Shown here piece by piece: positions 785-60,845 of a stretch of 64,000 nucleotides of DNA (positions are counted from its first letter, which is position 1; each line of letters begins with the position of its first letter). Under the pieces are notes generated by a model that saw nothing but the letters and a program-made list of their open reading frames with translations, was not told where the DNA came from and searched no databases. Both the position numbers and the translations under genes were made by a program. The DNA is from Leucoraja erinacea (lineage: Eukaryota). The stretch lies in the NCBI RefSeq assembly GCF_028641065.1, contig NC_073406.1, positions 13,764,001 through 13,828,000 on the forward strand. The letters are read 5' to 3'.

Positions 785-1175
785 TTTACTGATTGTCTGC
801 CTCCTTGTCACGTTCCTCATAGCTAGCAATGAACCATTCTACATGTCCTTATCATCGTCTGCTTTGATCTGTCATTTTCACATCTTATCCTTCCATAACT
901 CTAGACACCCTCACCCCTGACTCTCATTCTGAAGAAGGGTCTCGACCAGAAACACCGCCCATTCCTTCGCTCTAGAGATGCTGTGGCCCTTGTGGCTAAG
1001 GGGATCAGGGGGTATGGAGAGAAGGCAGGTACGGGATACTGAGTTGGATGATCAGCCATGATCATATTGAATGGCGGTGCGGGCTCGAAGGGCCGAATGG
1101 CCTACTCCTGCACCTAATTTCCCAGTTTCTATGTTTCTATGTCCCACTGAGTTACCCCAGCATTTTGTGGCTATC
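785..1175 (+). mobile_element. Penelope-like element 3' module (degenerate hammerhead at 929-956), interrupted by a CR1 tail
   Basis: CTGAAGAAGGGTCTCGACCAGAAAC followed by the family tail agagatgctg, which resumes at 1141 (gtcccactgagttaccccagcattttgtg). Confidence 0.75.
985..1140 (+). mobile_element. CR1 (HER1-like) LINE 3' end nested in the PLE module
   Basis: Typical CR1 tail gggccgaatggcctactcctgcacct plus (TTTCTATG)n. Confidence 0.85.
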
Positions 1176-1350
1176 ACGATGCCAAGTTAAACTGACCTCA
1201 TCTGCCTCTTTCCTGTTAGCCAATTAATCTTCTATTGATATCAATAACATACCTTCTACATCTGAATTATTTTCCATAATAACCTTTGCTACAGCACCTT
1301 ATCCATGCCTTCTGGAAATCTAAGTGCACAGCACCCAGCAGCTTTTTGTT

Positions 1351-1388
1351 CTGTGTATTCTGAATACTCTGTGTATTCTGTGTATTCT
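1351..1388. repeat. Short degenerate 9-bp tandem (TGTGTATTC)n
   Basis: About four units visible. Confidence 0.7.
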
Positions 1389-1650
1389 GGGCAGTACAGT
1401 GTCGCAGCGGTAGAGTTGGTGCCTTAAAGCGCTTGCAGCGCTGGAGACCCGAGTTTGATCCTGACCGCATGGGTTTTCGAGATCTTTGGTTTCCTCCCAC
1501 ACTCCAAAGACATACAGGTTCGTAGGTTAATTGACTTGGTATATGTGTATATTGCCCCTAGTGTGCAGGATAGAGTCCGTGTGCTGGGGTCGCTGGTCGG
1601 CGCGGGCCAAAGGGCCTGTTTCTGCGCTTTATCTCTAAACTAAACTAACT
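1389..1650 (+). mobile_element. tRNA-derived V-SINE (HE1-like), internally deleted
   Basis: tRNA-like head, V-domain ggtttcctcccacactccaaagac, CR1-derived tail aagggcctgtttc, (CTAAA)n end. Confidence 0.85.
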
Positions 1651-1964
1651 ATAAACTAACCTAAGATGTCTGTCATCACATATTTCTTAACCAAATCTTC
1701 ACATTTGCCAGCTCTACTTTCAAGCCCTTATTTAAGTTGAAAATATAATTTTCAGATCCATACTTTTTTCACTCAAATTAAACATAAATTTCCATTGTAT
1801 TGTAATGACAGCTACCTGGGGCCACCTTCTTAGAGTAGTTGTTTTAAGAAACTATCCCCAAAGGAGATGCTAATCTAGGCTATCTTTGACCATCTGATTT
1901 TTCCAATCAATGGATAAAGTAGATTAAAATAACATATGAATACTACCATACCTTTCTGCTAAAC

Positions 1965-2800: not shown

Positions 2801-2899
2801 ATGCTATGTGCACACTCGGGTAGAGGGCATTTTGTTGCATACTTTTATTATTTTGGGGGCATCTGACCTAATTTAAATTAACGGTGAATAAACAGTTTA

Positions 2900-4889: not shown

Positions 4890-5032
4890 GAGTCTGAAGA
4901 AGGTCCCCACCCGAAACGTCACCCATTCCTTCTCACCAGAAGTGATGTTAGAGAAATCAATATTCATACCACAGGGCTGTAAGCTGCCCAAGCAAACTAT
5001 GAGATGCTGTTCCTCCAATTTGCGTTTAGTCA
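4890..5032. mobile_element. PLE pieces: + strand hammerhead module (4894-4920) abutting a - strand GIY-YIG C-terminus
   Basis: CTGAAGAAGGTCCCCACCCGAAACGTC; minus strand reads KRKLEEQHLIVCLGSLQPCGMNIDFSN. Confidence 0.8.
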
Positions 5033-8534: not shown

Positions 8535-9193
8535 CAACTTTTTCCATATCGTATCTCTGTCCGCACTGCGGCCTAACATTGTGGAGCTGGTGGTCCCTTG
8601 GTTAGGGACCGACTTCGGGAGCTCCAACTGCAGGAGCTTCGACCGCCCTGTTGCAGGGGTTTCGATCGCCGACTGCGGGAACATCAATCGCCCCGACAAC
8701 CGATGTTTCGATCACCCTGACCGCGGGAGGAAAGGAGGAAGAAGGTAAAAGTTGTTCGCCTTCCATCACGGTGGTGAATGTGAGGTCGCCGAAAAGCACG
8801 ATGGACATGCGGCCTGCACTGGCGGGGATGCAGAGGGAGTGCCGTGAGTGCAGTGTTCTCGGTGTTTTGTAGAGATATGGCTCCATGAAGACATCCCGGT
8901 GTCTAGTGCAAGTGTGGACAGCTTTCCGACTGTTCAGACGGACAGGGGCTGCAGAGAGAGTGACAGCAGTCGGTACAACTCTGGTCACATGGAGCATGTT
9001 TGGCCCGATGATTGAACTGATGGCAGTGGGTCTCCGCTTATGCTGAGATTCCCACACGCCACTGTGGCGGCTGTTTATGTTTAATCATTATGTAGTTTTG
9101 TATCTTATTGCTTTTTTTGGTATGACTGCATGGTCAATCAAATGTCACTGTACCTCAATACACCTGACAGTAAAGGACCATTGAACCATTGAA
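8535..9193 (+). mobile_element. CpG-rich non-coding retroposon ending in a Rex1-like tail, nested in a PLE module
   Basis: Ends (CCATTGAA)2; host PLE sequence gctggtttaaac (to 8529) resumes as gaagatagacac (9196); shares motifs with 39591-40100. Confidence 0.6.
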
Positions 9194-9194
9194 C

Positions 9195-9335
9195 GGAAGA
9201 TAGACACGAAAAGCTGGAGTAACTCAGCGGGTTAGACAGCATCTCTGAAGAAAAGGAGTCAGCAGAACATCACCTATTCCTTTTCTCCAGAGATGCTGAG
9301 TGACCCGCTGAGTTACTCCAGATTTTTGTCTCTAT
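9195..9335. mobile_element. Head-to-head inverted pair of PLE 3' tails
   Basis: ctggagtaactcagcgggt...cagcatctctg mirrored by cagagatgctg...acccgctgagttactccag. Confidence 0.8.
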
Positions 9336-10544
9336 TGTCAGGAGATGATGGCAATAAAAAAGGGAAGGAAAACAGTTAGAATTGTGACAGGCTCCTCGAG
9401 ACTTCAGCAATGACCCGACTTTTAGATTCTTGCCCAGGTGCGGTGATGTCACCCTTTCCCAAACATGTCCGCCATTCACTGTCATTGCTGCAAGCCAGTC
9501 CAGCAAGCAGCCTTCCATTGCATGTCCCAATACTTGGTCAATGTAAAGTAACAGGTATAACTGGAGTTACTGTAAAGTAACTGGAGTTACTCCAGCATTT
9601 TGTGTCTATCTTCTTTTTGAAATTAATATTAAATTAGTGATTAAAATAAATGTATCCCTCTATAAATTTTAATCAGGTATTTTAATCCTGTGCAATAACA
9701 TAAAAATAACATAAAAATGGAAAGATTCAGTGGGTCAGGCAGCCTCTGACAATGGCATTGATATTATTATTGTCACGGTTTACCAAGATGCATTGGAAAG
9801 CGTGCTAACCACACAAATCATACTATACGTGAGATCAATTAAGCTATACACAAGTACAGAAGGTGGTGCAAAGAGAAAAAATATTAGTGCAGAATATAGT
9901 GAGGTTTGCAGTTATAAAGAAAATGCAGATTTAAAAAAATGCAGGTCCTCAATTAATTTGGTTGGAAGATTGGGACTATACCTTTGGCTGATGGAAAGAC
10001 CATTCAGTAGTCGGCTAACAGCGAGGAAGAAAGTGTTCCTGATTCTGGTGGTACGTGCATTCAAGCATTTGTATTTTCCTCATTTAGAAAGGGAAACAGA
10101 GATAATATTTCAGATCAAAGAATAGTTCTGACAAAGGATCACACTTCCACTATCTATAATTTTTATTTCTCTATGAGCTGAGATAGCTTTACCAATTAGG
10201 TTTAAATCAGGCCAAAATGTACAGGAAGGAACTGCAGATGCCGGTTTACATCGAGGGTGGACACTAAATGCTTGAATAACTCAGCGGGATCAGACAGCAT
10301 TGTTGGTGAAAAGGAGTAGGTGGTATCGGTGATATCAGTTTATGGAGGGTACAGTTAAGTTATGAGGCAGGTAAGGTCAGAGACTCATAGCGTAGTTGCT
10401 CCCCCAGACACTGGACGATTACTGTGGGATCAATCTTTAGCAATGATGATTTGCTGCTTGGAAATATCCCATCGTTTGCACTATGGTTCAATCTGGAAGT
10501 TAGACCCAACCGTTCACACATGCCCAATATATTTGGCCATTTTA

Positions 10545-10862
10545 TCTAACTTCAAGTAACCCTTGCATTGCCATCTGGCTCCATCCCTCCCCAACCCAAG
10601 GCGTGCTAGCTTCAAAGCCATCTTGTTGAGTCGGTAACTCATTTTCACTCAGCTCACAGCTAACAATAGCCTGTTTCCTTTATCATTGTTACTTTTTTGC
10701 ATATCTTTCATTCATTTGTTCTGTATCTCCCTACATCACCATCTATATCTCTCGTTTTCCTTTCCCCCGACACTCAGTCTGAAGAAAGGTCTCAACCCGA
10801 AATTTCACCAGGGATGCTGTCTGTCGCGCTGAGTTACTCCAGCATTTTCGTCTACCTTCAAT
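10545..10862 (+). mobile_element. PLE 3' UTR with degenerate hammerhead (about 10779-10806)
   Basis: tctaacttcaagtaaccc ORF end, pyrimidine-rich UTR, ctgaagaaaggtctcaacccgaaa. Confidence 0.8.
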
Positions 10863-11280
10863 GTAATCCACGTTAAGAAATAAATGGACGGAAATTGGTG
10901 TAAATGGTCAGTGTTAAAGGAAAGCACCAAAATCTCGCTATATATTTCTTTGTTAAAAACAATCATTAACATTTCAACTTATTTCACAATAATGCAAGCA
11001 CATTACACACAGCATGTTCAGAACTGGCACTCAGGAAGTTTTTTTCATTTTTAATGTGATTTATATGAATGCCATAAAAAAACTATTAGAGAATACAAAA
11101 GTGTGGAGCAGTTCTCAATAAGGTTATATTTCGACAAAAATACTCAGAAGTCGCAATGAATCACAGAACACTGACTTAATTTCCTACTGTGTCTATAAAT
11201 GGGCTGGCACTTTGAGATAACTTGCAGGAAGCTCATCTGGGGTGAATGGGAGAAGGGGGCTGCATAGGAACAGGCCTTAC

Positions 11281-11882: not shown

Positions 11883-11937
11883 ATTACCCCTGACACCATT
11901 ACTAATCAAGAATCTGTCAATCAACAGCTTAAAAATA

Positions 11938-12033
11938 GGCTGAAGAAAGGTTCCAACCCGAACCGTCACCCATCCTTTTTCTCCAGAGATGCTGCCTGAC
12001 CCGCTGAGTTACTCTATCACTTTATGTCTATCC
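11938..12033 (+). mobile_element. PLE 3' module with degenerate hammerhead
   Basis: ctgaagaaaggttccaacccgaaccgtcacc plus family tail. Confidence 0.8.
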
Positions 12034-17053: not shown

Positions 17054-17514
17054 GGAGCGGCACGGTGGCGCACCGGTAGAGTTGCTGCCTCGCAGCGCCA
17101 GAGACCCGAGATCGATCCTCGCTATGGATGTTGCCTGTACGGAGTTTGTACGTTCTCCCTGTGACAGCATGGGGTTTCCCCGGGTGCTCCCGTTTCCTCC
17201 CACATTCCAAAGATGTACAGGGTTGTAGGTTGTGTAGGAAGGAACTGCAGATGCTGGTTTAAATTGAAGGGAGACACAAAATGCTGGAGTAACTCAGCGG
17301 GACAGGCGGCATCTCTGGAGACAATGAATGGGTGACGTTTCGGGTGTCGACCCTTCTTCCTTTGTTTGGTTTGTAGGTTAATTGGCTTCTGAAAAAAAAT
17401 TGTAAATTGTCCCTAGTGTGTAGGATAGTGCTGGTGTACAGAGATCGCTGGTCGGTGTAGACTCGGTGGGCCAAAGGGTATGTTTACCGTGCTGTATCTC
17501 TAAACTAAACTAAA
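17054..17514 (+). mobile_element. V-SINE interrupted by a - strand PLE module (17232-17367)
   Basis: SINE head 17054, V-domain about 17190; GG(G/T)TTGTAGGTT repeated at 17220-17231 and 17368-17379 around the insert. Confidence 0.85.
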
Positions 17515-18529
17515 TCACAGGGAGAACATGCAAACTCTGCACAGACAGCACCTAAGCTCAGTATTGAAGCTGGGTTGCTGAAGCTGTGGTGCAATGATTT
17601 TATTCCAGATTTCCTCTGGACTTCCTTCCACACTTCAACACATTTTGCCTGTTCTCAATCAAATAGGATACTGAACAATTCCTAATCTAATAGGTCTTTA
17701 TTATATTACTAACATTTCAAGAAATAATGAACTATGTTTTTCAGACCAAATCTTGAAATGCATCATTATTCAGTATGTTGGGAGTCAACTTTGAGTTTAT
17801 TATTCTTTTCTTGCCATGTTTCTTTATTTTATGATGTTTAAACTTCCAGAAAGATGAAATATCTTAATTCAGTGCTCAGACAAACAGAAATTCCCCTTAT
17901 TTTTCCGTCTTGCTAATGGCCAACTGTGTGTGTCCTGGGCTTGATGTTGTTATATGTGGCATACCTGAAATACAGCTCTAATCTTCAATGAAAGACTTTC
18001 AGTTCTGGCTGACACAGAATACACCCTGCTTTATAGCAAAGTATATCGCAGACTGCTTTTAAATGTAACAATGTAAGCTGGGAAGCTGCAGCTTTCAAAC
18101 TCCACTTTCACCTTTGCCGCCAAACCCACACAGGTCCTTTTTGTTTTCCCTCCTGATCTATAACTGGATTAGGTTTCCAGTATCGCTTTGTAAAATTCAA
18201 ACCTTTACCACACAAGCAGAGCCTTCTGAAAGGGACACCTGAATCCATTTGACTCCTCTAAGTTCAACAGCAGACAAAGTGTTTGTGTAAATTAGCTGGG
18301 TCACGAAGAAACTCTTTCAGCCAAAAATGGTGTCTGTACTTCACCTCCATCTATCCAGGCCAACTTGTCTTTGAGTTGCTTCAGCAAATGGTTGTGCTTT
18401 TGCTGCTGTCTGCTTGGGGTCGTTCGGTAATGATCTCCCCTCCAAGTCTAGTAGATTTGAACTTAAACAACTCTTCAAAAATCGAACAAGTAATTTGGCT
18501 GATACTCCAGTGAACAAGTAAACAAACTG

Positions 18530-18745
18530 CTGTAGGAAGAAACCGCAGATGCTGGTTTAAAGTGAAGATAGGCGCAAAATGCTGGAGTAACTCAGCAGGA
18601 CAGGCAGCATCTCTGAGAAGGAATGGGTGATGTTTTGGGTCGGGTCGGGTCTGAAGAAGGGTCTCGACCCGAAACGTCACCCATTCCTTCAATCCGGAGA
18701 TGTTGCTTGTCTCGTTGAGTTAATCCAGCATTTTGTGTCTATCTT
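18530..18745. mobile_element. Head-to-head inverted PLE tail pair
   Basis: About 75-bp inverted arms flanking a hammerhead core. Confidence 0.85.
18647..18682 (+). ncRNA. Minimal type-I hammerhead ribozyme motif (PLE-type)
   Basis: GGGT-CTGAAGA-A-GGGTCTCGACCC-GAAAC-GTC-ACCC: intact core, helix II hairpin, palindromic ACGT in place of helix III, 4-bp helix I. Confidence 0.75.
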
Positions 18746-18949
18746 AAAGAAACTGCTGTGCCATTAATGTAAAGTGCAATGGTATAGCTCTTTTATGTGC
18801 AATAGAACATAGAACTGTACAGTACAGTGTAGAAAGCAACTGCAGATGCTGGTTTACACTGAAGATAGACATAAAATGCCAGATTAACTCAGCAGGTCTG
18901 GAGAAAAGGAATAGTTGTCATTTGAAGTCTAAACCCTTCTTCACACTAT

Positions 18950-19914: not shown

Positions 19915-20880
19915 ATACCTGTAGATACATAGTTCCCTGAAAGTGGTGACAATGTTACTCAGGGCATGAAGCAGGCAATTGGCAAACTTGCCCTCATTGG
20001 GAAAGGTATTGATTACAGAAGTTGAGACATCATGCTACAGCAAACATTGGTGAGACCACGTTTGTAGTATTGTGTGCAGTTCTGATCATCCAACAATAGG
20101 ATGGACATCATTAAGTTGGAAAGGGTGTGTAAATGATCTGCCAGGATGTTACCAGGACTCAAAGAATTGAGTTATAAGGAGAGACTGGGACTTTCCCCTT
20201 GGTGTATAGGAGGCTAAGGGGTGACATTGTAGAGGTATATAAAAATTGTGAGAGGTATAGATAAGATGCATGGTCACAGTCCATTCCCCAGGGTGGGAAC
20301 AGCAGAACTATGCACCAAAGTGGCGCAGCGGTAGAACTGCAGCCTTTCAACACTAGAGACCTGAGTTTGATCCTTACTACTGGTGCTGTCTCTACAGAGT
20401 TTGTACATTCTCCCTGTGACTGCCTGGGTTTTCTCCGGTTTCCTCCCACATTCCAAAGATGTGCAGGTCTGCAGGTTAATTGGCTAATTAGGCTAATTAG
20501 GATGTGAAACTGAGATAACATAGAACTAGTGTACGGGTGATTGATGGTCGAAGCAGCCTCGGTGGGCTGAAGAGCTTGTTCCCACTGTATCTCTAAACTA
20601 AACTAAACTAAGTTAGAGGACATAGGTTTAAGGTGAAAGGGGGAAATTTTAATAGAGACCCAAGGGATCAGTTCTTCACACAGAGGGTCGGACATATATG
20701 AAATGAGCTGCTGGAGGAAAACGTTGGGGAAGATACAATAACAACATTTAAAGATGTGGATAGGAAAGGTTTACAGGAATATGGCATAAGCACCTTGAAT
20801 TTGGAGCAGCTCAACTATAAAACCCAGTTGACAAAGACAGGTTAGGCCGAAGGGCCTGTTTTCATGCTGCATGACCCCAT
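19915..20880 (+). mobile_element. CR1 LINE 3' fragment interrupted by a V-SINE
   Basis: LVRP.L.YCVQF, LERV, RRLRGDIVEVYKI, FFTQRV motifs; tail at about 20845. Confidence 0.85.
20311..20612 (+). mobile_element. V-SINE nested in CR1
   Basis: gtggcgcagcggtagaactgc head, V-domain, (CTAAA)n. Confidence 0.85.
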
Positions 20881-22396
20881 AACACTGACATGGGGAAGGG
20901 TACATGGTAAAGGACTGCACTACTGCCCACTCTCTCTACCTGTGTGCAAGGTATTGTGGTGCCCACAGTGGCCTCATCGGGCACCTCACAACCCACAGGA
21001 CGACATGGAAGTAACTTAACCTCAACCCTGAGGGACCGTTTAAATAGAGGGATTTATTACATTGCTTTAAATGAACTGCGTTACATCAGTTGCACAAAGA
21101 CGGTGAACACTTAAGGAGTTGCCACCAATTCCGCTGTCGTCAGATTTTCTTTTCCCGAAACCACCTACTGTGAGTCTGTATCACAAGGGCCTGTCCTTTC
21201 ACATGACAGCGGGTGGGGGAACCACACTGACAATCCAGCTGGTGAAGGGAAAGCAGACGATACACCTGAGATTCTGCGACGATTCTGTAGAACAGGGCAG
21301 TACATGAAGGAATTAACTGATCCCAGCCTTCGATATTTAAATTCAATTGTCCTTCCCTCTCTGAGTAAGGGAACAGATGCATGTGCTTCTACTCAGTGTA
21401 GAGGCAGCCCCAGGGCAGTCCACACACGCTACAGTTTTCAAAGGGACCTGAATCAACTGTTAGAATCTAGCATATGTCCCAAGGTCCTTGAACGAGGCAG
21501 GAGATGATACAATTCTAAACTAAAGTCTGTATCAAAACAGATGTGATTTGAGACCACATAGAATGAATATAATTACTAAACTCTTCTCCTGCTGAATAGC
21601 TACATGCAGATTTGACTGTGAGCCAGATCTCAATTTATTATGGGGGAGGTGGGACTTTTGCAGCCAGACAGGTTGCTTCTCTATGGGTCCAGGGTGTGGG
21701 ATATCCTTGTGAAGAGGTTTGCCAGTGACATTTGGCAGTGAGGTGAAAGCCAACAACAACTTTGGAAGGGAGGGGGCATTTCATAAATGAATGTAGAAGG
21801 CAGAAGAATGAGCTCATCAGAGAGAAGGGACAAAGGATATGGGAAATGGCAAGTTTTGGCAATGCTTGTGATTTAATGTACGTGTCTTGAAAATGAGGCG
21901 ATGAGCTTGGGGAGCAGGTAGACATGTGGGAGTACCACGCAGTTGCCATTACTGGAACCAGGGTTGAGGACGAACAATAAATAAAAATTTTAATTAAAAA
22001 CAAATGCAGATGCTGGAAAACCGAAGAAATCAGCAAGTCTGGGGGCATCTGCGGGAAGGTCACAGGCACGATACCTTTCCACAGATGCTGCCTGATTTTT
22101 TTCCCGGCATTTTCTGTTTCTATTGAACCTGCGATGCAACAGCTCAGCCCAAGCCTTCAAGAAATTGCGGAAAGTTGTAGCTGTAGCCCAGTCCTTCATA
22201 CAAACCAGCTTGTCCCCACCATCGACTCCATTAATACATCACGCTGCCACAGAAAAGCAACCAACATAATGAATCACCAAAGATAGACACAAAATTCTGG
22301 TGTAACTCACCCATTCCTTCCTGAAACTGGCCCACTCAGTTACTTCCTGGAGTAACTGAGTGGGACAGGCAGCATCTCTGGAGAGAAGGAATGGGT

Positions 22397-22463
22397 GACG
22401 TTTCATGTCGAGACCCTTCTTCGGATTCAATGAGTGACGTTTCGGGTCGAGACCCTTCTTCAG
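22397..22463 (-). ncRNA. Tandem pair of minimal hammerhead motifs within a PLE tail (22280-22465)
   Basis: Minus strand CTGAAGAAGGGTCTCGACCCGAAACGTC-actcattgaat-CCGAAGAAGGGTCTCGACATGAAACGTC. Confidence 0.7.
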
Positions 22464-23859: not shown

Positions 23860-24148
23860 TCACGGAGATGCATCAGTAGAGTCGCTGCCTTACAGCGCTT
23901 GCAGCGCCAGAGACCCGGGTTCGATCGCGAATACGGGCACTGTCTGTACATAGTTTGTACGTTCTCCCCGTGACCTGCATGGGTTTTCTCAGAGATCTTC
24001 GGTTTCCTCCCACACTCCAAAGACGTACAAGTATGTAGGTTAATTAGCATGGTGTACGTGTAAATTGTCCCTAGTGTGTTTAGGGTCGGTGCAGACTCGG
24101 TGGACCGAAGGGGCCTATTTTCTCGCTGTATCTCTAAACCAAGCTAAA
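23860..24148 (+). mobile_element. V-SINE (HE1-like)
   Basis: B-box ggttcgatc, V-domain, CR1-like tail. Confidence 0.9.
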
Positions 24149-25627: not shown

Positions 25628-25805
25628 GGAAGATCGACACAAAAGCTGGCGTAACTCAGGGAGTCAGGCAGCATCTGGAGTCTGAAGAAGGATCTCAACC
25701 CGAAACATCACCCATTCCTTTTCACCAGAGAATCTGCCTGTCCCGCTGAGTTACTCCAGCATTTTGTGTCTATCTTCAGTTTAAACCAGCATCTGCAGTT
25801 CCTCC
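25628..25805. mobile_element. Head-to-head PLE tail pair with degenerate hammerhead (25682-25709)
   Basis: Inverted arms around ctgaagaaggatctcaacccgaaacatc. Confidence 0.8.
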
Positions 25806-26114
25806 CCACGCAGGGTAATGATGGAAGTGTTTGTTCTGGTCCATAAAACTTGGGTCATCTGATATCTACATCAGAGCACTGCAGAGCGAGTGAAAATACT
25901 AAGCCCATCGTGAATAAGCCTGAGGCAAAATGTTCACAAAGTTGCCTTGAAAATCAATGAAATATCTCCTGGAAATATAAAATAAGTACAGGGCTTTTAT
26001 TTTTTAAACCAGCATCCCTTGTCATTGATGTTGCCCGGCTCGCTGAGTGTTTCCAGCATTTTCTCGCTTTATGGAAGTTTATTTCTCAGTCACCAGACAT
26101 GTTGCACCAATTTT

Positions 26115-26212
26115 AGTCTGAAGAAGGGCCTCAACCCGAAATGTCACCCATTCCTTCTCTCCAGAGATGCTGCCTGTCCCGCTGAGTTACTCTGGCCATT
26201 TGAGTCTATCTT
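26115..26212 (+). mobile_element. PLE 3' module
   Basis: ctgaagaagggcctcaacccgaaatgtcacc. Confidence 0.8.
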
Positions 26213-28941: not shown

Positions 28942-29074
28942 GCGAATGCTTAGACTGCTGTAAGTAAGAATTTAATTGTTCCATTTCGGGTCATACAACA
29001 ATAAAACACTCTTGACTTTTGACACTGTGCAGTGGCAGCCTCTAGCCATCAGCCGATACAAGGTTTCATATTAC

Positions 29075-33907: not shown

Positions 33908-34038
33908 TGTGTAGGAAGGAACTGCAGATTCTGGTGTAAACCGAAGATAGACACAAAAAGCTGGAGTAACTCAGCGTATCAGACAGCATCTCTGGAGAAA
34001 GGGAATAGGTGGCGTTTTGGGTAGAGAACCTTCTTCAT
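33908..34038 (-). mobile_element. PLE 3' module
   Basis: Reverse family tail and degenerate hammerhead. Confidence 0.75.
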
Positions 34039-37219: not shown

Positions 37220-37247
37220 CTGAAGAAGGGTCTCGACCCGAAACGTC
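37220..37247 (+). ncRNA. Minimal hammerhead motif in a PLE module (37218-37312)
   Basis: Exact CTGAAGAAGGGTCTCGACCCGAAACGTC; helix I pairing poor. Confidence 0.65.
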
Positions 37248-37760
37248 ACCTATTCCATTCTCCAGAGACGCTGCCTGACCCGCTGAGTTACTTCAGCTTT
37301 TTGTGTCTATCCTTAAAAAACTACAGCCATCCATTCCAGGCACCATCCCGGTGAAAATCTTAAGCCCCTGTCCCACTTTCACGACCTAATTCACGGCCTC
37401 TGCCGAGTTTGCCCTTGACTCACACTCGCAGCATGGTCGCCACGAGGTCGTAGGAGGTCGTAGGTAGGTCGTGATGCTAGTCGTAGGTACTCGTGGCATC
37501 AAGTAGGTCGCGGCGTATTTTCTAGCCTCATTAAAAATGTCCACGAGTAAAAAAAAGGTCGGCATGAAAAAAATCGATACTTTTTACTCGTACGTAGGTC
37601 GTAGGTGGTCGGAGGCAGTCAACGGTGATAAATTTGGGGTGAAAAAAAGGTCAGTAGAAATAAAAGGTTATTTAAACAGCAGACCGTCACCTCTGTCACT
37701 CCAGGGCATGTTCATTCATAGCTGGAGAGTGTTTTTGGAGAGGAGACTTGTGTTGTAGAG

Positions 37761-38176
37761 ATGGCACCAAAAGGGCAGCAGCGCAGGGGAGGGCACAACC
37801 CTAAAAACAATAGGCCATGCAGGTGTTGCCCACCCAAGAGGAAGAGTGGCAGGAGGAGATGCCACAGGGGGTGATAGTGCAGGAGGAGGTAGCTCTGCAT
37901 GAGAGACCCCTGGGGGAGGAGACCAGGGTGGTGGTATATGTCCCCACCACCACTCCATCCTTCACTGCCTCATTTGAAGGCAGCAAAGCAGCCCTTTCTC
38001 CTGTGTCTGGCACATCATCAGAGGCAGATGCCCCATCGGTGGTGAGGGAGGGCTGGAGGGAGGTTATGCCCTACACCTTCACCAGGCAGCAGGAGGGAGA
38101 CATTGAGGAATGGTTCCAGCAGAATGCCACCCTGTACAATAAGGAAAATGAGGGGTACAGGGACAGGGACAAGAAT
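37761..38176 (+). pseudogene. Truncated Harbinger Myb/SANT(MADF)-like DNA-binding protein gene
   Basis: MAPKGQQRRGG start (frameshifted), acidic linker, then FTRQQEGDIEEWFQQNATLYNKENEGYRDRDK resembling the MADF N-terminus. Confidence 0.7.
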
Positions 38177-38404
38177 GGCATGCTTGCCTACCACTGCCCC
38201 ACATGTGTGCTTAAAGTTCCATCTTTTGTCAAAGTCCAGCGCCACTCTCTTCCAGTCATCTGGTGTACTGGTATAGTCCATCACATCATCTCCATTCACC
38301 CATTGAGATCTCTTCTTGTGCTTCACCCTTGCTCTTCCCCTTCTGCCTTTCTTAAAAGGCTGCTGAAGCAAAACAGCTACTGCAAACAGCAGTAAGACGT
38401 ACAT
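38177..38404 (-). pseudogene. Deleted Harbinger (HARBI1-like DDE) transposase gene
   Basis: STPDDWKRVALDFDKRWNFKHTCGAVVGKH matches the W..ia..F...wnFP.c.GAiDGKH motif; catalytic D replaced by V. Confidence 0.85.
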
Positions 38405-38777
38405 GGTCGAAGCCAGTCTTCACCATAGTCGAAACAGGTCTTCTTCATTGTCCTTTGAAGGTCTTCAACATAGCGGTGGGAGGCCTCCAACATAGTCGTA
38501 GGAGGTCGTAGACATGGTTGTGGAAGATCTTAGGAGGTCGTACACATAGTCGTGGAAGGTCGTAGGAGGTTGTAGGTTACCTCGACCTTGATTTCTTTAG
38601 GTCATTTAAGGTCATCAGAGGTCGCGAATTAGGTCGTGAAAGTGGGAAAGGGGCTTGATGCACTCTCTCCATTATTACCAGTCTTGCTGAAGTGTGGAGA
38701 CCAGAACGGTATATAATACCATAATTGTGCACTAACCTATGTTTTGTATATATTCCTAATCAACATATCTCTCAGAG

Positions 38778-39058
38778 CACCTCATATTCCGCCTGGGTTG
38801 CTTGCGTCCGAATGGCATGAACGTTGAATTCTCCCAGTTTTGCTAGCCCTTGCTGTCTCCTCCCCTTCCTTAACCATAGAGCTGTCTCCTCCCATCCCCC
38901 CGCCCTCGGGCTCCTCCTCCTCCCCCTTTTTCCTTCCTTCTCCCCCCCACCCCCCATCAGTCTGAAGAAGGGTTTCGGCCCGAAACGTCGCCTATTTCCT
39001 CCGCTCCATAGATGCTGCTGCACCCGCTGAGTTTCTCCAGCATTTTTGTGTACCTTTA
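38778..39058 (+). mobile_element. 5'-truncated Penelope-like element with 11-bp TSD
   Basis: HLIFRLGCLRPNGMNVEFSQFC* then 3' UTR; ATCTCTCAGAG at 38767-38777 and 39059-39069. Confidence 0.9.
38962..38989 (+). ncRNA. Minimal hammerhead motif, variant helix II
   Basis: CTGAAGA-A-GGGT-TTCG-GCCC-GAAAC-GTC. Confidence 0.75.
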
Positions 39059-41332: not shown

Positions 41333-41849
41333 TTTATGGAAGTTGTGACAGAATATTTTAAGGGAGAAAAAAATGTAAAATATGGTTTATTTTAATAGAG
41401 GCAAAGTCTTTCATTAGTACAATGCCATTCCCAAGTGACCTCAGGTTTTTGAATGGATTAAGAAAACGTACTTCATATTTTCTAACGACGACTAATCTAA
41501 ATATGATCTTTTAAACTGGAACTCACGTTACTTTCTATTTCAATGACATTGGTCGATGTGGGACTTTCTTTTGAATTCATTTAGGGGATGTGGCTATTAC
41601 TGACAAGCCACTTTATAATTACCTTGAGAATAGTGGCGAATTATCGTCTTGAATTGTTGCAGTCAGTCAGTGTGCTGAAAGTACACTCACAGTGTTCTCA
41701 CACAGACAGTTGAAGGATTTTCATCAAGCAAGAAGAAAATAGTGATAGATTTCCAAACAATGACGGTGAGATTGAGAGTTGTGGGTGATGGCATTCCCAC
41801 ACAGCTAACATCCTTGTTCACCATGTCAGGCATTTGGGACACAGCATAT

Positions 41850-42153
41850 TTCTCTAATTTCACGTAACCTTTGCATTCCCTCTCTCTGTCCACCCCTCCC
41901 CCACCCTAGTCATCTTGCTAGTCTCACTGTTCTTATCCCTTCGTTTTCACCTCCTCCTCCACCAACAACGGACCATTGTGGACTCTTTGGCCATCGCTGC
42001 TGTCTGATCTGTTCGGCACCTTTTCATATCTCTAGTTTCCCTCTACCTTGACTCTCAGTCTGAAGAAGGGTCTCGACCCGAAACGTCACCTATTTCTTTT
42101 CTCCAGAGATGCTGCCTGACCCGCTGAGTGTTACTCCAGCTTTTTGTGTCTAT
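41850..42153 (+). mobile_element. PLE 3' UTR with intact hammerhead core (42060-42087)
   Basis: Exact CTGAAGAAGGGTCTCGACCCGAAACGTC. Confidence 0.85.
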
Positions 42154-45609: not shown

Positions 45610-46205
45610 ATGAAAGGGCAAGGATAGGCAGATGGAGTATAATGCGAAAAGAATATCAAGCCATCCACTTTGATGGGCAAAATAAAAAAGATTAAAATGT
45701 GTTAATGTTCAGAGGAACCGAAATTTCCTTGTAAATGAACCACTATAAGTAACCATACAGGTATGGCAAGCAATTAAGATGGCAAATAGTATTCCGGCTT
45801 TAAGTGCTAGGGCATTGGATTATACGAAGTAAGGTTGTATTATTGGAGTGATAAGGAGGCTTGGTGAGAGTACAAATGGCACATTGTGCCTAAGTCAGTC
45901 CCTCTACAAAAGAAAGAGTACACTTGCTAGAAAGGGAATGTAACAAAGATTAAGCAGATTGATTTCAGGGATTGATTTGTCGCATAAGGAGAGATTAGGC
46001 AGACTAAGTTATTCTCCGCTTTATTGAAGGAGAGCTAATCTCGGACAAACCTTACTGGGCTTGAGCATCAGGTGCAGAGGATGTTTCTATGCTTGAGGAG
46101 TCCAGGAGTGGGGCGCACAGTTGACGAATAAAGGGGAAATTGCTTTGGACTGTGACGAGGAGAATATTCCTCACAGAGTCATGGACCATCAATTCACAGA
46201 ATTGT
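45610..46205 (+). mobile_element. Old CR1 ORF2 3' fragment
   Basis: WQMEYN..K, LVR, IKGKLLWTVTRRIFLT motifs. Confidence 0.7.
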
Positions 46206-46782
46206 ACAGTGCAGAGCCGGCTGTACTTATTGAGAAGGCTCTGCTCCTTCAACTTCTGCAGTAAGATGCTGCAGATGTTCTACCAATCGGTGGTAGCCAG
46301 TGCCATCTTCTTCGCTGCCGTGTGCTGGGGCAGCAGAGCGAGGGCCGCGGGCACCAATAGGATCAACAAACTCATCAAGAAGGCCGGTTCCGTCCTGGGG
46401 GTGGAGTTGGATTCATGGCAGGTGGTCTTGGAGGAAAGGATGCTCCTCAAACTGCGAAGCATCTTGGACAATACAGCTCACCCCTTCCATGACACACTGG
46501 TCAACCTGAGGAGTACCTTAAGCAACAGACTGGTTCCACCAAGATAAGTAGAGAATGCCACAGGAGATCTTTCTTCCTTGTGGCTATCAAACTGTATAAC
46601 TCCTCCCCCTTCTGTCAGGTGAACTGACTCCCCCTCCCCCCCTCCCCCCTCCCCCCCCCCCCCCTCCCCCCCCCCAATCTTTGCACGTCTTTACTTTCAT
46701 GTTTCATGTATTTTGTGTTTCATGACTGTTGGCAGATCAATTTTCCTACTGGAATAAATAAAGTTCTATCGTATAGTATCGT
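46206..46782 (+). mobile_element. Rex1/Babar-type LINE 3' fragment
   Basis: QSRLYLLRRLCSFNFCSKMLQMFYQSVVASAIFFAAVCWG...ILDNTAHPFH; AATAAA plus (TATCG)n tail. Confidence 0.85.
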
Positions 46783-47250: not shown

Positions 47251-47721
47251 CTACTCTGGTCGGCTGTGGAAGCTCAGTCATTATTTTCATTCAGTACAGA
47301 GACTGGTACTTTTCCCGGGGCTTTACAGGAATCATGAGGTATGGCTCATAGAAAATGGCTCTGAGGTGGAAGAGTAAACATGATCCTGTGGGAACCTGAA
47401 ACGTCACCTATCCATGTTTGTCAGAGATGCTGCCTGACTCACTAGGTTATTCCAGCACTTTGTGTCATTCATTTTAACTGGGTGTCAGTGATACCTCCTG
47501 TTTCAAAAACCCAAGAGACCGTATTGACCACAAGGTATCAGCCATTGTCCTCTTCTTTAATGGTTACCTCTTCACAATGATGCGCAATACTTTAAGAATT
47601 GTGGTTGAGTTATTTGTACATCAGATTAAAATTTTCTTTCAAAAATGCTGCTCATTCAATTTTACAAGTGTGAAGAAAGACATTATTTCTTTTTCACAGT
47701 TATATTGTGCTAGAATTATTT

Positions 47722-48192: not shown

Positions 48193-48402
48193 TTATACAC
48201 AAATTATTTTAATCGTTCCTTCTAAATCCTGAGAAATAAATATCTCCAGGGTGATACAACATTGTAACATGAGATTTTTCTCCAAATTTTCCAGCTAGTC
48301 TAAAATTCATCTGTATCACAATACTGCCACCTACTGATGAGATCCCTATATACTTCTATACCACATCCTGAATTAGTCACTACAGAGTTATTTTCTTGTG
48401 TC

Positions 48403-48856
48403 ACTCAGCGGGTCAGACAGCATCTATGGAAAAAAGGAATAGGGGACGTTTCGGGTCGAGGCCATTCTTCAGAAGAAGAGTTCTTCTGGAAGGGGTGTCA
48501 TTCTGGAATAGGTGACATTTCGTGTTGAGACCCCTCTGAAGAAGAAGGGTCTCAACCCGAAACGTCACCAATTCCTTCTCTCCAGAGATGCTGTCTGAGT
48601 CATTGACTTACTCCAGCTTTTTGTGTCTATCTTAAACCAGCATCTACAGTTGCTTCCAACACAGTTATTTTCTTCCTGTCTTAGCCAGTCCCTCAGGACC
48701 GAGGATGTCTTTCTTCTACACTGTTGATCTTCAGTCCAAAGAAGGGTCTCGACCTGATATACGCCATCCATTCCTTCTCTCCAGAGATGCTGGCAGTCCC
48801 ACTGGGTAAATCCAGCAATTTGTGTCTATCTTTGGTGTAAACCAGCACCTGCAATG
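48403..48856. mobile_element. Cluster of four PLE modules (two - strand, two + strand)
   Basis: Hammerhead-like cores at 48445-48472 (-), about 48513-48533 (-, partial), 48536-48566 (+), about 48735-48765 (+, decayed). Confidence 0.8.
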
Positions 48857-50970: not shown

Positions 50971-51778
50971 ATCAGATTCAGATTCAATTTTAATTGTCAT
51001 TGTCAGTGTACAGTACAGAGACAACGAAATGCATTTAGCATCTCCCTTGAAGAGCGACATAGCAAACGATTGAATAAAAAATAAATAATAAGTGTCCGGG
51101 GGGGGGGGTGATGATTGGCAGTCACCGAGGTACGTTGTTGAGTAGAGTGACAGCCGCCGGAAAGAAGCTGTTCCTCGACCTGCTGGTTCGGCAACGGAGA
51201 GACCTGTAGCGCCTCCCGGATGGTAGGAGGGTAAACAGTCCATGGTTGGGGTGAGAGCAGTCCTTGGCGATGCTGAGCGCCCTCCGCAGACAGCGCTTGC
51301 TTTGGACAGACTCAATGGAGGGGAGCGTGGAACTGGTGATGCGTTGGGCAATTTTCACCACCCTCTGCAGTGCCTTCCGGTCGGAGACAGAGCAGTTGCC
51401 ATACCATACTGTGATGCAGTTGGTAAGGATGCTCTCGATGGTGCAGCGGTAGAAGTTCACCAGGATCTGAGGAGACAGATGGACCTTCTTCAGTCTCCTC
51501 GGGAAGAAGAGACGCTGATGAGCCTTCTTGATCAGAGTAGAGGTATTGTGGGTCCAAGAGAGGTCATCGGAGATGTTGACTCCCAGGAACCTGAAGCTAT
51601 AAACATGTTCCACCTCCGTCCCGTTAATGTGGATGGGGGTGTGCGTGCCGCCTCTGGACTTCCTGAAGTCTACAATGAGCTCCTTGGTCTTCTTGGAGTT
51701 AAGGGCCAGGTTGTTGTCAGCGCACCATGCTGCTAAGTGCTGGACCTCCTCCCTGTAGGCCAGCTCATCGTTGTCATT
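50971..51778 (-). mobile_element. Well-preserved Rex1/Babar-type LINE 3' fragment
   Basis: 163-aa ORF FRFLGVNISDDLSWTHNT...AHQRLFF...FYRCTIESILTNCITVWYG...LLPSGRRYRSL; (TGAATC)n tail. Confidence 0.9.
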
Positions 51779-52019
51779 TAATTCTTCACCATATCAGAGA
51801 TATCTTCCATCCTCCCTTGCACCTTCCACTTGGGGTTAACATTTGCTTCATCTGTAACTATTCCCAGTTGCGGTGAAAGGTCATCAATCTGAGACATTAC
51901 CCTCCGTTTCTCTCTCCACGGATGCTGCTCAACCTGCTGAGTATTTCCAACATTTTATCATTTTATTTCATAAATGCACAACCTGTTCAAGATGTATTCA
52001 AGATGGATTTCAATTAGTG

Positions 52020-52370
52020 ATAGGCACAAGGAACTGCAGATGCTGGTTTACAAAAAAAAAAATTAAATATGCTGGAGTAACTCAAAGGGTCAGGTAGCAT
52101 CTCTGGAACAATTTCAACATAAATAGTCAGAGCAATTTAGACTGATTGTAGTAGGGATGGAGATATCTGGAAGGAAGATAAGGGTGGGCGTGGGAAACAA
52201 AACCAGGCAAGGGGTAATTGGTGATGCTATGGTTAGCGTGGAAAATAGTGTAAACGTGGACAAAGGATATAGATCCTGAAGAAGGGTCTCAACACGAAAT
52301 GCCAGCCATTCCTTCTCTCCAGAGGTGCTGCCTGTCCTGCTGAGTTACTCCAGCTTTTTGTGTCTACCCT
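52020..52370. mobile_element. Head-to-head PLE pair
   Basis: - strand tail 52020-52110; + strand module 52276-52370. Confidence 0.7.
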
Positions 52371-52394
52371 CAGAATATAGATCAGATGGAAAGC

Positions 52395-54493: not shown

Positions 54494-54800
54494 GGGCACA
54501 GTGGAGCAGCGGTAGAGTTACTGCCTTACTACACCAGAGACCCAGTTTCAATCCTGACTACGGTTGACGTCAGTATAGAATTTGTACGTTCACCTTGTGA
54601 CCGCATTGATTTTCTCCGAGTGCTCTGATTTCCTCCCACACTCTAAAGATGTGCAGGTTTGTAGGTTAATTTGTCTTTGGTAAAAATGGAAAATTGTCCC
54701 TAGTGTGTAGGATGGTGCTAGTGTATGGAGATCACTGGTCGGTGCAAACTCACTGGGCCGAAGGGCCTGTTTCCGCGCTGCATCTCTAAATTAAACTAAG
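54494..54800 (+). mobile_element. V-SINE, full length
   Basis: Head, V-domain, CR1-like tail. Confidence 0.9.
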
Positions 54801-54801
54801 A

Positions 54802-55357
54802 TAATAATAATAACTTTATTTATAAAGCACTTTTAGGCAACATCAGTTACCACAAAGTGCTGTACAAGGGAAATCAACAAAAGTTATCACAAAACTAAAA
54901 CCATTAAAACGACAGGACTATAAAAACAGTAAAAAATTAAAAGACATTAAAAGCACTAAAACAGGAACAATGTCTCAGCCAGTGTCGAAAGCCAGTGAAT
55001 AAAAGTGCGTTTTTAGGGAGGATTTAAAGATGGACAGTGAAGGGGCCTGTCTGATCTGCAGCGGCAAGGTGTTCCAAAGTGCCGGTGCAGCAACAGAAAA
55101 GGCTCTATCCCCTCTGAGCTTCCGCTTAGACCTTGGTACCTCAAGGAGCAGCTGATCCGCTGACCTGAGGCACCGGGTAGGAGCATATAGGTGGAGCAGC
55201 TCAGAGAGGTAAGGCGGGGCGAGGCCATTCAAAGATTTAAAAACAAATAAAAGAATTTTAAAATGAACTCGAAAGTGCACTGGAAGCCAGTGAAGGGAGG
55301 CCAAAATTGGGGTAATGTGCTCCCTCTTTCGAGTTCCGGTTAAAAGGCGAGCGGCAT
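54802..55357 (-). mobile_element. L2-clade LINE 3' fragment
   Basis: ASLHWLPVHFRVHFKILL...GLAPPYLSELL...GDRAFSVAAPALWNTLP; (TTA)n tail. Confidence 0.9.
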
Positions 55358-56119
55358 GATAGTGTCATTATCTCATTCATATCTATAGGTCCCTGCTTTG
55401 TTCAAATTAACTGTTGATGTTTGCAACAATACAAAAGTGAGCACAATTCGGGCTATGGATATAAAAATCACATGTTAGTGTACACTGATTCAGAGACAGG
55501 AGTCCATCACACACAATGTGCTGCTTACTGTCAGAGCACAATGTACATTATGTACATAATCACAATAATACACACAGGTAAACATTTCATGGTAGTGAAA
55601 TTGTCAATGAATTTGAGCAACTTTCTTAAAAATGAAATTGCAATACTAACTTTGAAATGTTCCTTTTCCTGTGATGTTCTGAATATTATGCACTACCAAT
55701 TATTCTAATGCTGAACCACGTTCATAAATATCAGGATCAGAGGTGACAAATGAACCACATAATTCAAAAGGAAGTGATTCACTCTGATCTTAACAGATTG
55801 AAAATCAGATGGGTTTTATGCTGGTTTTCAAGTTCGATTGTCACCTGTAGGTTAGAGATAAAACTAGCTCAAACTATGTGGATAGACGGTTTGTTGTGGA
55901 TTTTGAGACATTAAAGGAAAAGCAATTTAATTCATTCATTTTTATGAGTTAATGTTGACGTTTCCTACAGTTTCCAACATAGCAGTGACTAGACTTCAAT
56001 GTCTGTGAAGTACATGAGGGCTTCTAAGGATGATGAGAGGCACCATATAAATGCAATCCTTTCTTTTGTTGTCTTAAAACTGTTTGATGAATGAAAACCA
56101 CCACCTGTATTCAGAATGG

Positions 56120-57900: not shown

Positions 57901-59410
57901 GAGAGTGGACTTGAGAGTCTGAGAGCTTCTCTCGCTCGTCTCACAGGCTTGTATCAAAATAATCCACAAGCTCCCGGGACTAATACAAAAATATATACAG
58001 CTGTACATTAGCCACGCTCAGCAGGTAACAATATCCTTTTTTTTTAAAAAGAATCCATCAAATGAGAAAAAGAGAACGTATTTAACACTGCAGTGGAGGC
58101 AGTTACAAAACTGAAACAAAATAAAGGAACATAAAAGGTCCCAAAGTGCAGGAAGGAAAGTGCTTGTGATTTATGAATTGTATTGCAATTCCTTGGTTCC
58201 CGCTGAGGTCCCTGTGTTTATTTTGTGCAATAGTGTTTGTGGGTTATGGTACATGAATGCTGAAGCATAGTTTCCGAAGTGGAACCTACCACAGTATGTG
58301 TGAATGTGTAGCTTTAAACTGCTGCTGTGAAGATGGAGGCAGCTTGACGCAAAGAATCAAATGAGGGATGGAAGGACAGGAACCTGTGATAATAAAGAGG
58401 CAACTTGTCAGCAGAATTTTTACCTTGCACACGTGGAAAGTAATATTGCCGATGTCTCCTGATAATTCAGTGGGAGAAACGTAATCAAGCATCGCTTATT
58501 AGTTTAACTGTTTCTCGAGAAAGCAAAAAGCAATCCTACCAAAGACGGCTATCTCTCATCTATGAATCTTTTGTTCCAATGCATAAAACAGATCATCCAG
58601 GTGTTTAATGAGAAAAAGCAAGGCAGCCTCTCAGACCCTTTGTGAATACAATTACAGAATTAGATCTGCCGGACTGGCAGGTGCACAGATTAACTTGACA
58701 CTAAGCAGCATACTTTGCTGAAATAATGCAGCTGTCTCTCACAGAATAAATTCGTCAAAAATTCTATTTCACGGAGAGAAATCATTCGATTTTTGTACTA
58801 CAGGTGCTTGTTTGCTCCACTTATGGCAGCAGATTTGACAACTTCCATGGCAGAAGCAACGGGAGCACTGTGGTAATTCATCAGGGCTTGAGACAAGCTC
58901 TTGATTATAGTATTACAGCATTAACATGATTAACCACTGCAGTACAGTGTAGGTTGTCATTCACAAGCAAGAGGTGCAACTTGGCATGTAATGCCCGGAT
59001 GATCAACATTAGAGCAAAACGTTATTAATCAATTGACGGCAATCATTGTTCCAGTCACTTCACACCCAATGAACATTATTGAGAGAGATTTATGGACATT
59101 CTCTAAGCACTTTGAAGGAGCCAATATTATTTTGTCAATATAATTAGGGATTGGCTGTGATTTTATGTGGTGAAATACATGGCTATTACAATATAATGCA
59201 AATTACACAAGACACAAGGTTCAGTGTTGTTTTTCTCATGATGCTTTCAAAATGGATCTACAATTGTATGAACATTTGTTTTGACCTGCGGTTAGTGCCA
59301 CCTCCTCACCACCCACACATTCTGGTCCTTGTGAAATTACATAATAATTAGCCAAAATGCTGCTTGAAATGGCGTGAAGGTGGATTCCACCTGGAGGCAG
59401 CAATGATTGT

Positions 59411-59775
59411 ACAGGCTAGATGCAGGAAAAATGTTCCTGATGTTGGGGAAGTCCAGAACCAGGGGTCAGTGTAAGAATAAGGGGTAGGCCATTTAGGACT
59501 GAGATGAGGAAAACGTTTTTCACCCAGAGAGTTGTGAATCTGTGGAATTCTCTGCCACTAAAGGCATGTTTTCAAGAGAGTTAGATATAGCTCTTAGGGC
59601 TAACTGGATGTTTTCAAGAGAGTTAGATATAGCTCTTAGGGCTAACAGAATCAAGGGATATGGGGAGTAAGCAGAAACGGGGTACTGAATGTTGATGATC
59701 AGCCATGATCATATTGAATGGCAGTGCTGACTTGAAGGGCCGAATGGCCTACTCCTGCACCTATTTTCTTTGTTT
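59411..59775 (+). mobile_element. CR1 3' fragment with internal 39-bp duplication
   Basis: FFTQRVVNLWNSLP motif; repeat at 59566-59604 and 59608-59646. Confidence 0.9.
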
Positions 59776-60487
59776 TCCTGGAACCACAAATAGCTTCACG
59801 TGTTTGCCTCATGCCAGTCAAAACAGGAAACCACCCCTTGAAGGAGATACTCTCTCCGAATAGCCAGACAGCCATAACTCATATGATGGCTGCCATGCGG
59901 AGCAGGCATTAGGAGAGAGCTCCAGATTTCACTCAGATAAACACAAGAAGCCACACGAATGAGATACACGCGAGGGAGGTCCTGCATACAGCGTAGGGAG
60001 TAGGCATTCTGCCAAGTTGCCGTTCGAAGTCTGGCAAAGAGTGATTACAGCAGTCTCCTCAAGGAGTGGGAATACCTTTACAATGGAGCAATGCATGAAG
60101 AAAATAACTTATTAATGCATATATACTGTATACTCTTACATACTAATGCGCACCTCATGGGAGACTCAAGAGGCTGCAGATGATGGAATCTTGAGCAAAA
60201 AGCAAACTCAGCAGGGAAATGAACAGTCATCAGTATGAAGAAAGGCTCTTCATGCCCATTGTTTGAGGAGGAGTCCATCACCAATCTCTCATCGGCGGTA
60301 GTTCAGACCATGAATTCTACTGGTGGTGATAGAGGTCACACAAAATCTTGCAGGTTCCATGGCCTCTCACACTGATCCAGATAAGTTTGGTGTCTGCCAA
60401 AAAGGAGCTTGGAGGCAGTCTACAGTTTGCATGTTCTGCAACCAAATGTGTTTCCTGCAACATCACAAAGTCATGTGGTTTGGTCTG

Positions 60488-60845
60488 TTTCTCTAACTTC
60501 AAGTAACCCTTCAAGTAACCCTTGCTTTCCCTCTCTCTCTCCTTCCCTTCCCCACCCTAGTCCTCCTATTACTAATTCACTGTCGTCCTGATTTATTTTG
60601 GTGTGCCTCAATGTCACCTTCCCCTCAGCCAAAAATGAGCCATTCTACATTTCCTCGATCGTCAGCTGCTTTAATCAGTCCTTTACATACTTTACATTCT
60701 TGTTCTACCTTTCCATATCTCTAGTTTCCCCATCCCCTGACTCTCAATCTGAAGAAAGGTCTCGACCCGAAACATCACCCATTCCTTCTCTCCAGAGATG
60801 CTGCCTGTCCCGTTCATTTACTCCGGCATTTTGTGTCTATCTTTG
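60488..60845 (+). mobile_element. PLE 3' UTR with degenerate hammerhead (60749-60776)
   Basis: ctgaagaaaggtctcgacccgaaacatc plus family tail. Confidence 0.85.

Follow-up and report, generated by a model that had tools for sequence, protein, structure and literature searches.

We analysed a stretch of 64,000 nucleotides (nt) from the genome of the skate Leucoraja erinacea (NCBI RefSeq assembly GCF_028641065.1, contig NC_073406.1, positions 13,764,001 to 13,828,000 of the forward strand; hereafter, the window), in which a short module, made up of a minimal hammerhead ribozyme and a downstream tail, occurs many times on both strands. Judged from its sequence, the module is the hammerhead and tail of the pseudo-long terminal repeat (pLTR) of Penelope-like elements (PLEs), probably Neptune-type. 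The kind of element is already known; the notable feature is that the 5′ ends of its short copies, here called stubs and mostly 100-135 bases long, are sharply bounded by the ribozyme's front edge. Positions within the module were counted from the C of CUGA, and the two sites at which the tail can end were named T1 (about +90-96) and T2 (about +127-130).

For the 28-nt core motif we allowed up to 3 mismatches and obtained 12 matches in the window, against 0 in 100 shuffles. A preliminary description, made from the sequence alone, had placed exact motifs at 18651, 22436-22463 (minus strand), 37220 and 42060, and all four were verified; every decayed site that it listed was located again, several of them on the minus strand (17332-17359, about 31091-31120, 34011-34038, 34235-34262, about 36045-36064, where the core has a deletion, and 48445-48472). 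Its estimate of about 20 copies, or about one per 3 kb, agrees with a profile search of the window, which gave 24 whole-core copies (about one core per 2.7 kb) and 31 tail-bearing copies, and BLAST with the window copies as queries returned 44 pieces, 24 on the plus and 20 on the minus strand. A strict minimal-hammerhead descriptor was passed by 5 of the 24 cores, namely 18651, 22463 (minus), 37220, 38962 and 42060; no Rfam family reached its gathering threshold in the window. [quoted passage not shown] The 42060 and 60749 copies each have at least 200 nt of 3′ untranslated region (UTR), and many copies in the window are arms of head-to-head pairs. The copies are the following, with RT for reverse transcriptase, A and B/Y for two subfamilies of the element, and L203 for the locus with its longest open frame.

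38775-38846, plus strand: last 23 codons and stop of a PLE RT-GIY-YIG ORF of the young B/Y type, 5′-truncated (17/23 identity to the L203 C-terminus, E 3e-12).
38847-38961, plus strand: short pyrimidine-rich 3′ UTR of the B/Y subfamily, with the boundary motif TCAGT at its end.
38962-38989, plus strand: intact minimal hammerhead, B/Y variant, helix II with a U-G pair and a UUCG loop; predicted cut after 38989.
38990-39057, plus strand: tail of the 38962 copy as far as T1.
41848-42151, plus strand: long A-type copy with final ORF codons, about 200 nt of 3′ UTR, intact hammerhead (42060-42087) and tail to T1.
60511-60843, plus strand: long A-type copy with 3′ UTR, decayed hammerhead (60749-60776) and tail to T1.
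18527-18748: head-to-head pair; minus arm 18527-18642 (start +14, end T2), plus arm 18649-18748 (start -2, intact hammerhead 18651-18678, end T1).
37216-37314, plus strand: solo stub, start -4, intact hammerhead 37220-37247, end T1.
22347-22463, minus strand: two same-strand cores 39 nt apart with a partial tail; 22436-22463 intact, 22397-22424 with core and helix II broken.
25629-25812: head-to-head pair; minus arm 25629-25676 (start +47, T1), plus arm from 25679 (start -3, T2).
26115-26212, plus strand: solo stub, start -3, end T1.
11937-12032, plus strand: solo stub, start -3, end T1.
17231-17359, minus strand: solo stub, start +2, end T2.
18827-18947, minus strand: decayed stub, start -3, end T2.
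31003-31125, minus strand: solo stub, start -5, end T2.
33907-34037, minus strand: solo stub, start +1, end T2.
34171-34323: decayed head-to-head pair; minus arm to 34261 (start +1), plus arm 34271-34323 (tail only).
48400-48853: cluster of minus stubs at 48400-48481 and 48505-48537 and plus stubs at 48541-48664 (start +2, T2) and 48727-48853 (start -5).
52276-52373, plus strand: stub, start 0; a tail-only minus copy lies at 52028-52112.
9189-9341: head-to-head pair, both arms tail-only, starts +34 and +22.
10745-10870, plus strand: copy with a related but different upstream pyrimidine UTR and an internal tail deletion.
35956-36112, minus strand: copy that retains some of the A-type UTR and has lost the second half of the core through a short-repeat deletion.
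891-983, plus strand: decayed copy, core 929-956, UTR upstream, tail broken by another repeat.
4890-4940, plus strand: decayed stub, core and tail start only.
10223-10329, minus strand: tail-only copy, start +18, T2; a similar copy lies at 47393-47477 (plus).

The core is laid out as CUGAAGA, an extra A, a helix II of 4 bp with a 4-nt loop, GAAA, the self-complementary ACGU and a C or U, followed by the predicted cut, while helix I has 2 bp. This layout, the descriptor and covariation support the earlier identification of a minimal type-I hammerhead of a PLE, helix III being palindromic. Applied to 80 related metagenome loci, the descriptor matched 25 times on the ORF strand and once antisense, and in 11 of the 40 loci with post-ORF sequence a match fell within 700 nt after the ORF (0 in shuffles). 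Covariation was present: in 10 aligned copies, including distant relatives, 57 of 60 cells were paired and 4 of the 6 pairs had two-sided changes, in helices I and II both, where the five distant rows had been picked by a descriptor requiring helix II but not helix I. The covariation score was 0.71, against at most 0.16 for slid alignments; within the skate genome itself there was only a one-sided change (U-A to U-G). The minimum-energy folds predicted for monomer and dimer differ from the active hammerhead fold, consistent with the low or protein-assisted activity reported for such ribozymes (PMC4209133, PMC11167929). In the parent RNA the hammerhead would probably cut only as a dimer or with protein help, and in most stubs it is probably inert. 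The fold is kept by only 5/24 window cores, and in read-through RNA a ribozyme that has a head-to-head partner would be paired with it.

The parent element was recognised in longer loci, in which RT, a C-x4-C-x2-C linker and GIY-YIG with CCHH residues are followed, about 100-120 nt after the stop, by the hammerhead. The ORF end was found upstream of the window copy 38962 and of locus L007, and the longest open frame, that of L203, has 1193 amino acids, with the hammerhead 118 nt past its stop. Pfam matches on the parent protein, RVT_1 (E 3e-6) and GIY-YIG (E 5e-4), are both below the curated cut-off; its homologues carry RVT_1, PF26215 and GIY-YIG, and the named vertebrate ones come from sharks and rays. 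The end module lies about 100-260 nt 3′ of the stop codon and is repeated about 170 nt 5′ of the ATG. In this upstream pLTR copy the tail continues into the 5′ UTR, with the ATG about 170 nt after the core, which is a pLTR-ORF-pLTR layout. Of 30 loci selected because they matched the N-terminal part of the protein, 11 had a partial-tandem pLTR, that is, ORF end, UTR and hammerhead again upstream of the ORF. Two PLE hallmarks, the optional 30-40-nt tail and the inverted 5′-truncated partner, were also present. Since a CX2-5CxxC linker and CCHH residues are visible, we assign the element to the Neptune or Nematis type, by these criteria of PMC8557442. The A subfamily dominates in the window and its UTR is longer than that of B/Y; its median identity to references is 0.87-0.88, against 0.91-0.94 for B/Y, and because of this lower value we consider A as older. 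At least two further PLE subfamilies were noticed, each with its own pyrimidine-rich UTR and the same boundary motif and hammerhead (window 10745-10778, 891-928 and 60511-60700).

To map the ends we considered 667 copies in 1.434 Mb, having an alignment score of at least 60 and reaching +75 (758 tail hits before filters). Their 3′ ends are bimodal, at T1 and T2. Of the 5′ ends, 94 were upstream of -12, 280 at -12..+4, 189 at +5..+26, 14 at +27..+31 and 90 later; among the 302 copies reaching -1, 184 have their 5′ end at -5..-1. The stop hazard there is 0.17 per base, while every other zone has values of 0.003-0.04. A simulation of uniform truncation (1,425 truncations) was flat, with 10-14 per base. 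A random spread of 5′ ends, which the preliminary description had set against the idea of a discrete element, was thus not what we found. The boundary is the same in subfamilies with differing upstream UTRs, and the 51 copies ending at -13..-45, several of which have other UTRs, leave the peak at -5..-1 unexplained. Repeats of at least 7 nt resembling target-site duplications (TSDs) adjoin 9 of 30 young solo stubs (1.4% in shuffled pairings) and 22 of 92 in a looser set (2.75%). The description's alternative between extreme 5′ truncations and a short interspersed element (SINE) missed the likely answer, i.e., complete, TSD-flanked insertions of the end module with a fixed boundary. A shared upstream flank or a hidden subfamily was also tried as the cause of the boundary and rejected, since non-inverted stubs have flanks with no relation to one another (only 5 of 64 fell into clusters).

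In the explanation that we consider the best overall, with a probability of roughly 0.55, stubs are RT copies of an RNA that begins just a few bases 5′ of the ribozyme core. The element's RT would begin at either tail site, T1 or T2, and would then run off a template beginning at -5..-1. A competing explanation, which we hold to be rather unlikely, is that RT starts at T1 or T2 on long templates and stalls or aborts early just past the hammerhead, at the pyrimidine tract or at the quasi-palindrome TCAG-T-CTGA, so that stubs would be ordinary 5′ truncations with a hot spot. The hazard is indeed raised within the ribozyme (0.016 per base at +5..+31 and 0.042 at 0..+4) and again at -30..-6 (0.02-0.03), as for a difficult region rather than a single point; short and long copies have alleles in common, and heavy 5′ truncation is the norm for PLEs (PMC8557442). 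A stall should, however, act at each passage. At the first crossing of the boundary 32 of 63 B/Y copies stop there, but of the 12 copies crossing it a second time, from the 5′ UTR back to -1, 11 run on upstream over a further 73 to 700+ nt, and the remaining one (L205, in its inverted 5′ part) stops at -2. It is because 11/12 second crossings ignore the site that we favour a template beginning at the boundary over a pure stall, against which the constancy of the boundary under different upstream UTRs also speaks. Long pLTR-ORF-pLTR copies would come from longer or circular templates without that RNA end.

The RNA end itself would arise, with roughly even odds, either because transcription starts at the initiator-like TCAGT or because a nuclease is halted where the protein-bound ribozyme begins. 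TCAGT fits the initiator consensus. An internal promoter is reported for the Penelope pLTR (PMC2377424), and the same report lends some credit to another reading, namely that stubs carry an internal RNA polymerase II promoter, are re-copied by the PLE protein and form their own lineages as a self-propagating non-autonomous element. Their discrete length, TSDs and very high copy number would suit such an element; non-autonomous PLE derivatives have already been published, and no full-length A-type parent was found, none of 147 A-type T2 ends continuing into a shared 5′ UTR. Against it, no allele is private to short copies (208 short against 38 long A-type copies, no position at p<0.01, a comparison of limited power), there are no shared transduced flanks, and the reads contain no stub-sized RNA ends. 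Moreover, the long A-type copies, whose 5′ ends are staggered, join degenerate GIY-YIG coding sequence: a same-strand ORF match adjoins the UTR in 10 of 29 other loci of one set, and 5 of 5 loci of a second set run into the ORF, reaching residue 815 of 1193. We therefore regard self-propagation as improbable, and the separate SINE-like family proposed in the preliminary description is not borne out either, since short and long copies have common alleles and every examined subfamily is linked to a PLE ORF end.

The pyrimidine tract and CAG before the core could also be taken as a 3′ splice site, stubs being then copies of spliced RNAs. The sequence before the core does fit an acceptor, and the base frequencies at -2 and -3 in solo stubs (70/87, then 43/70) resemble those of exon ends; in Drosophila virilis, a Penelope intron ends at helix I (PMC4209133). 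Yet an element-derived upstream exon joined at -1 was found in 0 of 110 solo stubs, no forward joint to the site was among the best-supported joints listed, and TSDs often directly adjoin the boundary, so that we judge splicing very improbable.

Copying of ribozyme cleavage products is largely refuted as the source of the stubs, and we give it hardly any credence. Some 30 nt separate the predicted cut from the main boundary upstream of it, and only 14/667 copies start at +27..+31, with no spike at the cleavage site in that sample. What speaks for it is one near-full-length young copy (L188, G000:C12:56126275-56129430, minus), which runs through the 5′ UTR into the ORF and starts exactly at the predicted cut, +28, a single case that may be due to chance, together with an excess of B-family starts at +28 over +31 of about 2.4-fold. 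The latter comes from a hand tally of GA-/GG-type flank classes among the first 100 matches listed for each position (24 among the first 100 of 390 at +28, 18 among the first 100 of 214 at +31). Genome-wide, the B-family junction patterns numbered 390 (+28), 189 (+27), 162 (+29), 214 (+31) and 154 (+26), and the joint A-family pattern 845, counts with unequal flank weights that are contaminated by micro-deletions and palindromic joints. In all sampled copies, 5′ ends at +5..+60 begin on G 1.9 times more often than expected, a bias that the simulation lacked; the B-family base at +28 is a G, and the G preference, being found everywhere, matches the B excess. The A family gave 10 against 4 in clean classes among the matches listed, where about 3.5:1 is expected with no spike.

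Head-to-head pairs numbered 118 and took in 234 of the 667 copies. T1 was combined with T2 in 79 of them, about 55 being expected from solo frequencies, and only 2 of the 158 arms of these T1+T2 pairs extend past -12. A same-strand neighbour lay directly upstream in 10 of 234 anchored copies, and the one tandem of the window has a broken second core. We put forward tentatively, as a possible but doubtful extension, that the main germline substrate of RT is a discrete, hammerhead-headed RNA of 100-140 nt, whose strong-stop-like cDNAs integrate singly or as twin-primed T1+T2 palindromes. Such an RNA would begin at an initiator or where the PLE protein has its footprint on the ribozyme. If this were true, hundreds of thousands of ribozyme micro-insertions would derive from direct cDNA integration, and the ribozyme module would define the 5′ end of the element's RNA without cutting, which could let stubs re-transcribe themselves.

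Several observations weigh against a template with its 5′ end at the boundary. The second crossings are few, were selected through a protein search and may in part be tandems from separate insertions; the boundary is fuzzy (-8 to +5), with a further 203/667 copies ending at +5..+31; and distant relatives have no conserved TCAGT ahead of their hammerheads. Discrete RNA starts or ends were absent from raw poly(A) and single-cell reads, from libraries that are not cap-revealing and possibly of another species. Cap-derived extra G was not significant (41 against 33 expected of 132; best p 0.057). Read or contig depth does rise about 40- to 200-fold from -19..-12 to -3..+4 in three organisms, but the reference used carries core mutations of its own, which inflates the step, and RNA read depth mirrors the genomic stubs. 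In one RNA run about 54,000 of 12.9 million reads touch the module (85% likeness), and since 77-96% of the aligned RNA reads continue into unlike sequence, they mostly report host read-through. Single-cell reads (on L086:1660-1870 and L193:835-1034) had, in addition, a strand bias of about 12:1 to 35:1 over UTR and core and about 3:1 over the tail, which may reflect 3′ ends or priming sites just 3′ of the module; bulk reads were even.

Among known systems, the minimal hammerheads of metazoan PLE pLTRs (PMC4209133; Cervera and De la Pena 2014) share the CUGANGA core, the additional base ahead of helix II, the G10.1-C11.1 pair and the loop-free palindromic helix III, lie likewise in PLE terminal repeats, and are mostly single motifs from truncated PLEs, some in close opposite-strand pairs. 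The skate helix II has instead 4 bp and helix I just 2 bp, and a single exact 31-mer, with 10,833 occurrences in the 2.19-Gb genome (control 0), outnumbers the 4,000 motifs of coelacanth and the 9,000 of Xenopus; in the accessible part of that paper we found no 5′-end map and no chondrichthyan case. Endonuclease-positive units of the Neptune clade (Craig et al. 2021, PMC8557442) share with the skate element RT with C-terminal GIY-YIG, the CX2-5CxxC linker, the CCHH motif, the partial-tandem pLTR, the inverted 5′-truncated partner and the optional tail of 30-40 bp. Truncation is treated in the available text in general terms, whereas in the skate stubs dominate and are sharply delimited where the ribozyme begins. 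Hammerheads in PLEs, single motifs from truncated copies, inverted partners and tails had all been published (PMC4209133, PMC8557442).

PAc, a Poseidon element of Anolis carolinensis (Frangieh et al. 2024, PMC11167929), also has two 3′ ends about 35 nt apart past the hammerhead, a tail pattern that the authors tie to RT starting at two internal sites, and lacks RNA reads that end where the ribozyme would cut; in vitro, insertion did not require its ribozyme. PAc belongs, however, to the Poseidon clade, with no linker Zn finger, and its ORF begins inside helix II, whereas in the skate about 170 nt lie between the core and the ATG; the available part of the paper does not deal with a 5′ boundary. 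Non-LTR retrozymes (PMC7229834; bioRxiv 10.64898/2026.07.22.740005) are likewise non-coding, hammerhead-bearing and related to PLE pLTRs, but they are head-to-tail tandem units with a ribozyme in each, mostly canonical type I (PMC7229834). The skate stubs lack this head-to-tail arrangement: they are scattered, carry a minimal ribozyme, and occur as TSD-flanked monomers or in head-to-head pairs. We found no publication on a 5′ boundary at the ribozyme edge or on these elements in cartilaginous fish, in a search that left Repbase, subscription journals and preprint supplements outside.

To sample the density across the genome we took 27 blocks, each of 50 kb and placed at a round-number position, from contigs C1-C39; tail copies amounted to 77 per 350 kb for seven large chromosomes and to 648 per 1,000 kb for the smaller ones. 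The density of the window is thus typical of small chromosomes and not special to it. By extrapolation, the core rate of large chromosomes alone (59 per 350 kb) would give about 370,000 cores genome-wide, and the window's PLE C-terminal peptide had 82,220 first-look candidates in the genome. Hammerhead motifs are thus a sizeable, and probably mostly inert, share of the skate genome and its RNA. For PLE transposition and the role of weak hammerheads, these insertions record where copying started and stopped in vivo, and several hundred thousand dated ones, with a sharp 5′ boundary and two 3′ ends, make the question directly assayable.

Some further features of the module were noticed. At the joints of several young head-to-head pairs (blocks C30b, C36) there are short tandem repeats of +8..+38, from helix II through the cut site, which suggest that the template was switched repeatedly inside the ribozyme. 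In three metagenome contigs from distant relatives of the PLE, the hammerhead lies no more than 20 nt from the contig start (L288:10, L332:4, L364:19), as if in other animals, too, assembly broke at this boundary. A 66-nt tandem repeat, corresponding to +20 to +85 of the module, with half of the core and the tail, and devoid of CUGA (blocks C35, C36, L263-L272), is a minisatellite born from the tail, and it is found also in 832 RNA reads of one run (joint 1804 to 1739).

The window contains other repeats too. Another abundant family, about 350-400 nt long and headed by a tRNA-like part, resembles an elasmobranch tRNA-derived SINE and occurs at 17059-17510, 20314-20486, 23884-24085, 28745-28948, 54495-54797 and elsewhere. 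Two overlapping frames at 37814-38419 resemble remains of a PIF/Harbinger-type DNA transposon; the reading frame at 38021-38419 had no Pfam match. Fragments resembling the C-terminal part of other RT ORFs, of long interspersed elements, lie at 51122-51793 (minus), 46125-46547 (plus), 54975-55364 (minus) and 61169-61639 (plus), the first two with a match to PF09004.

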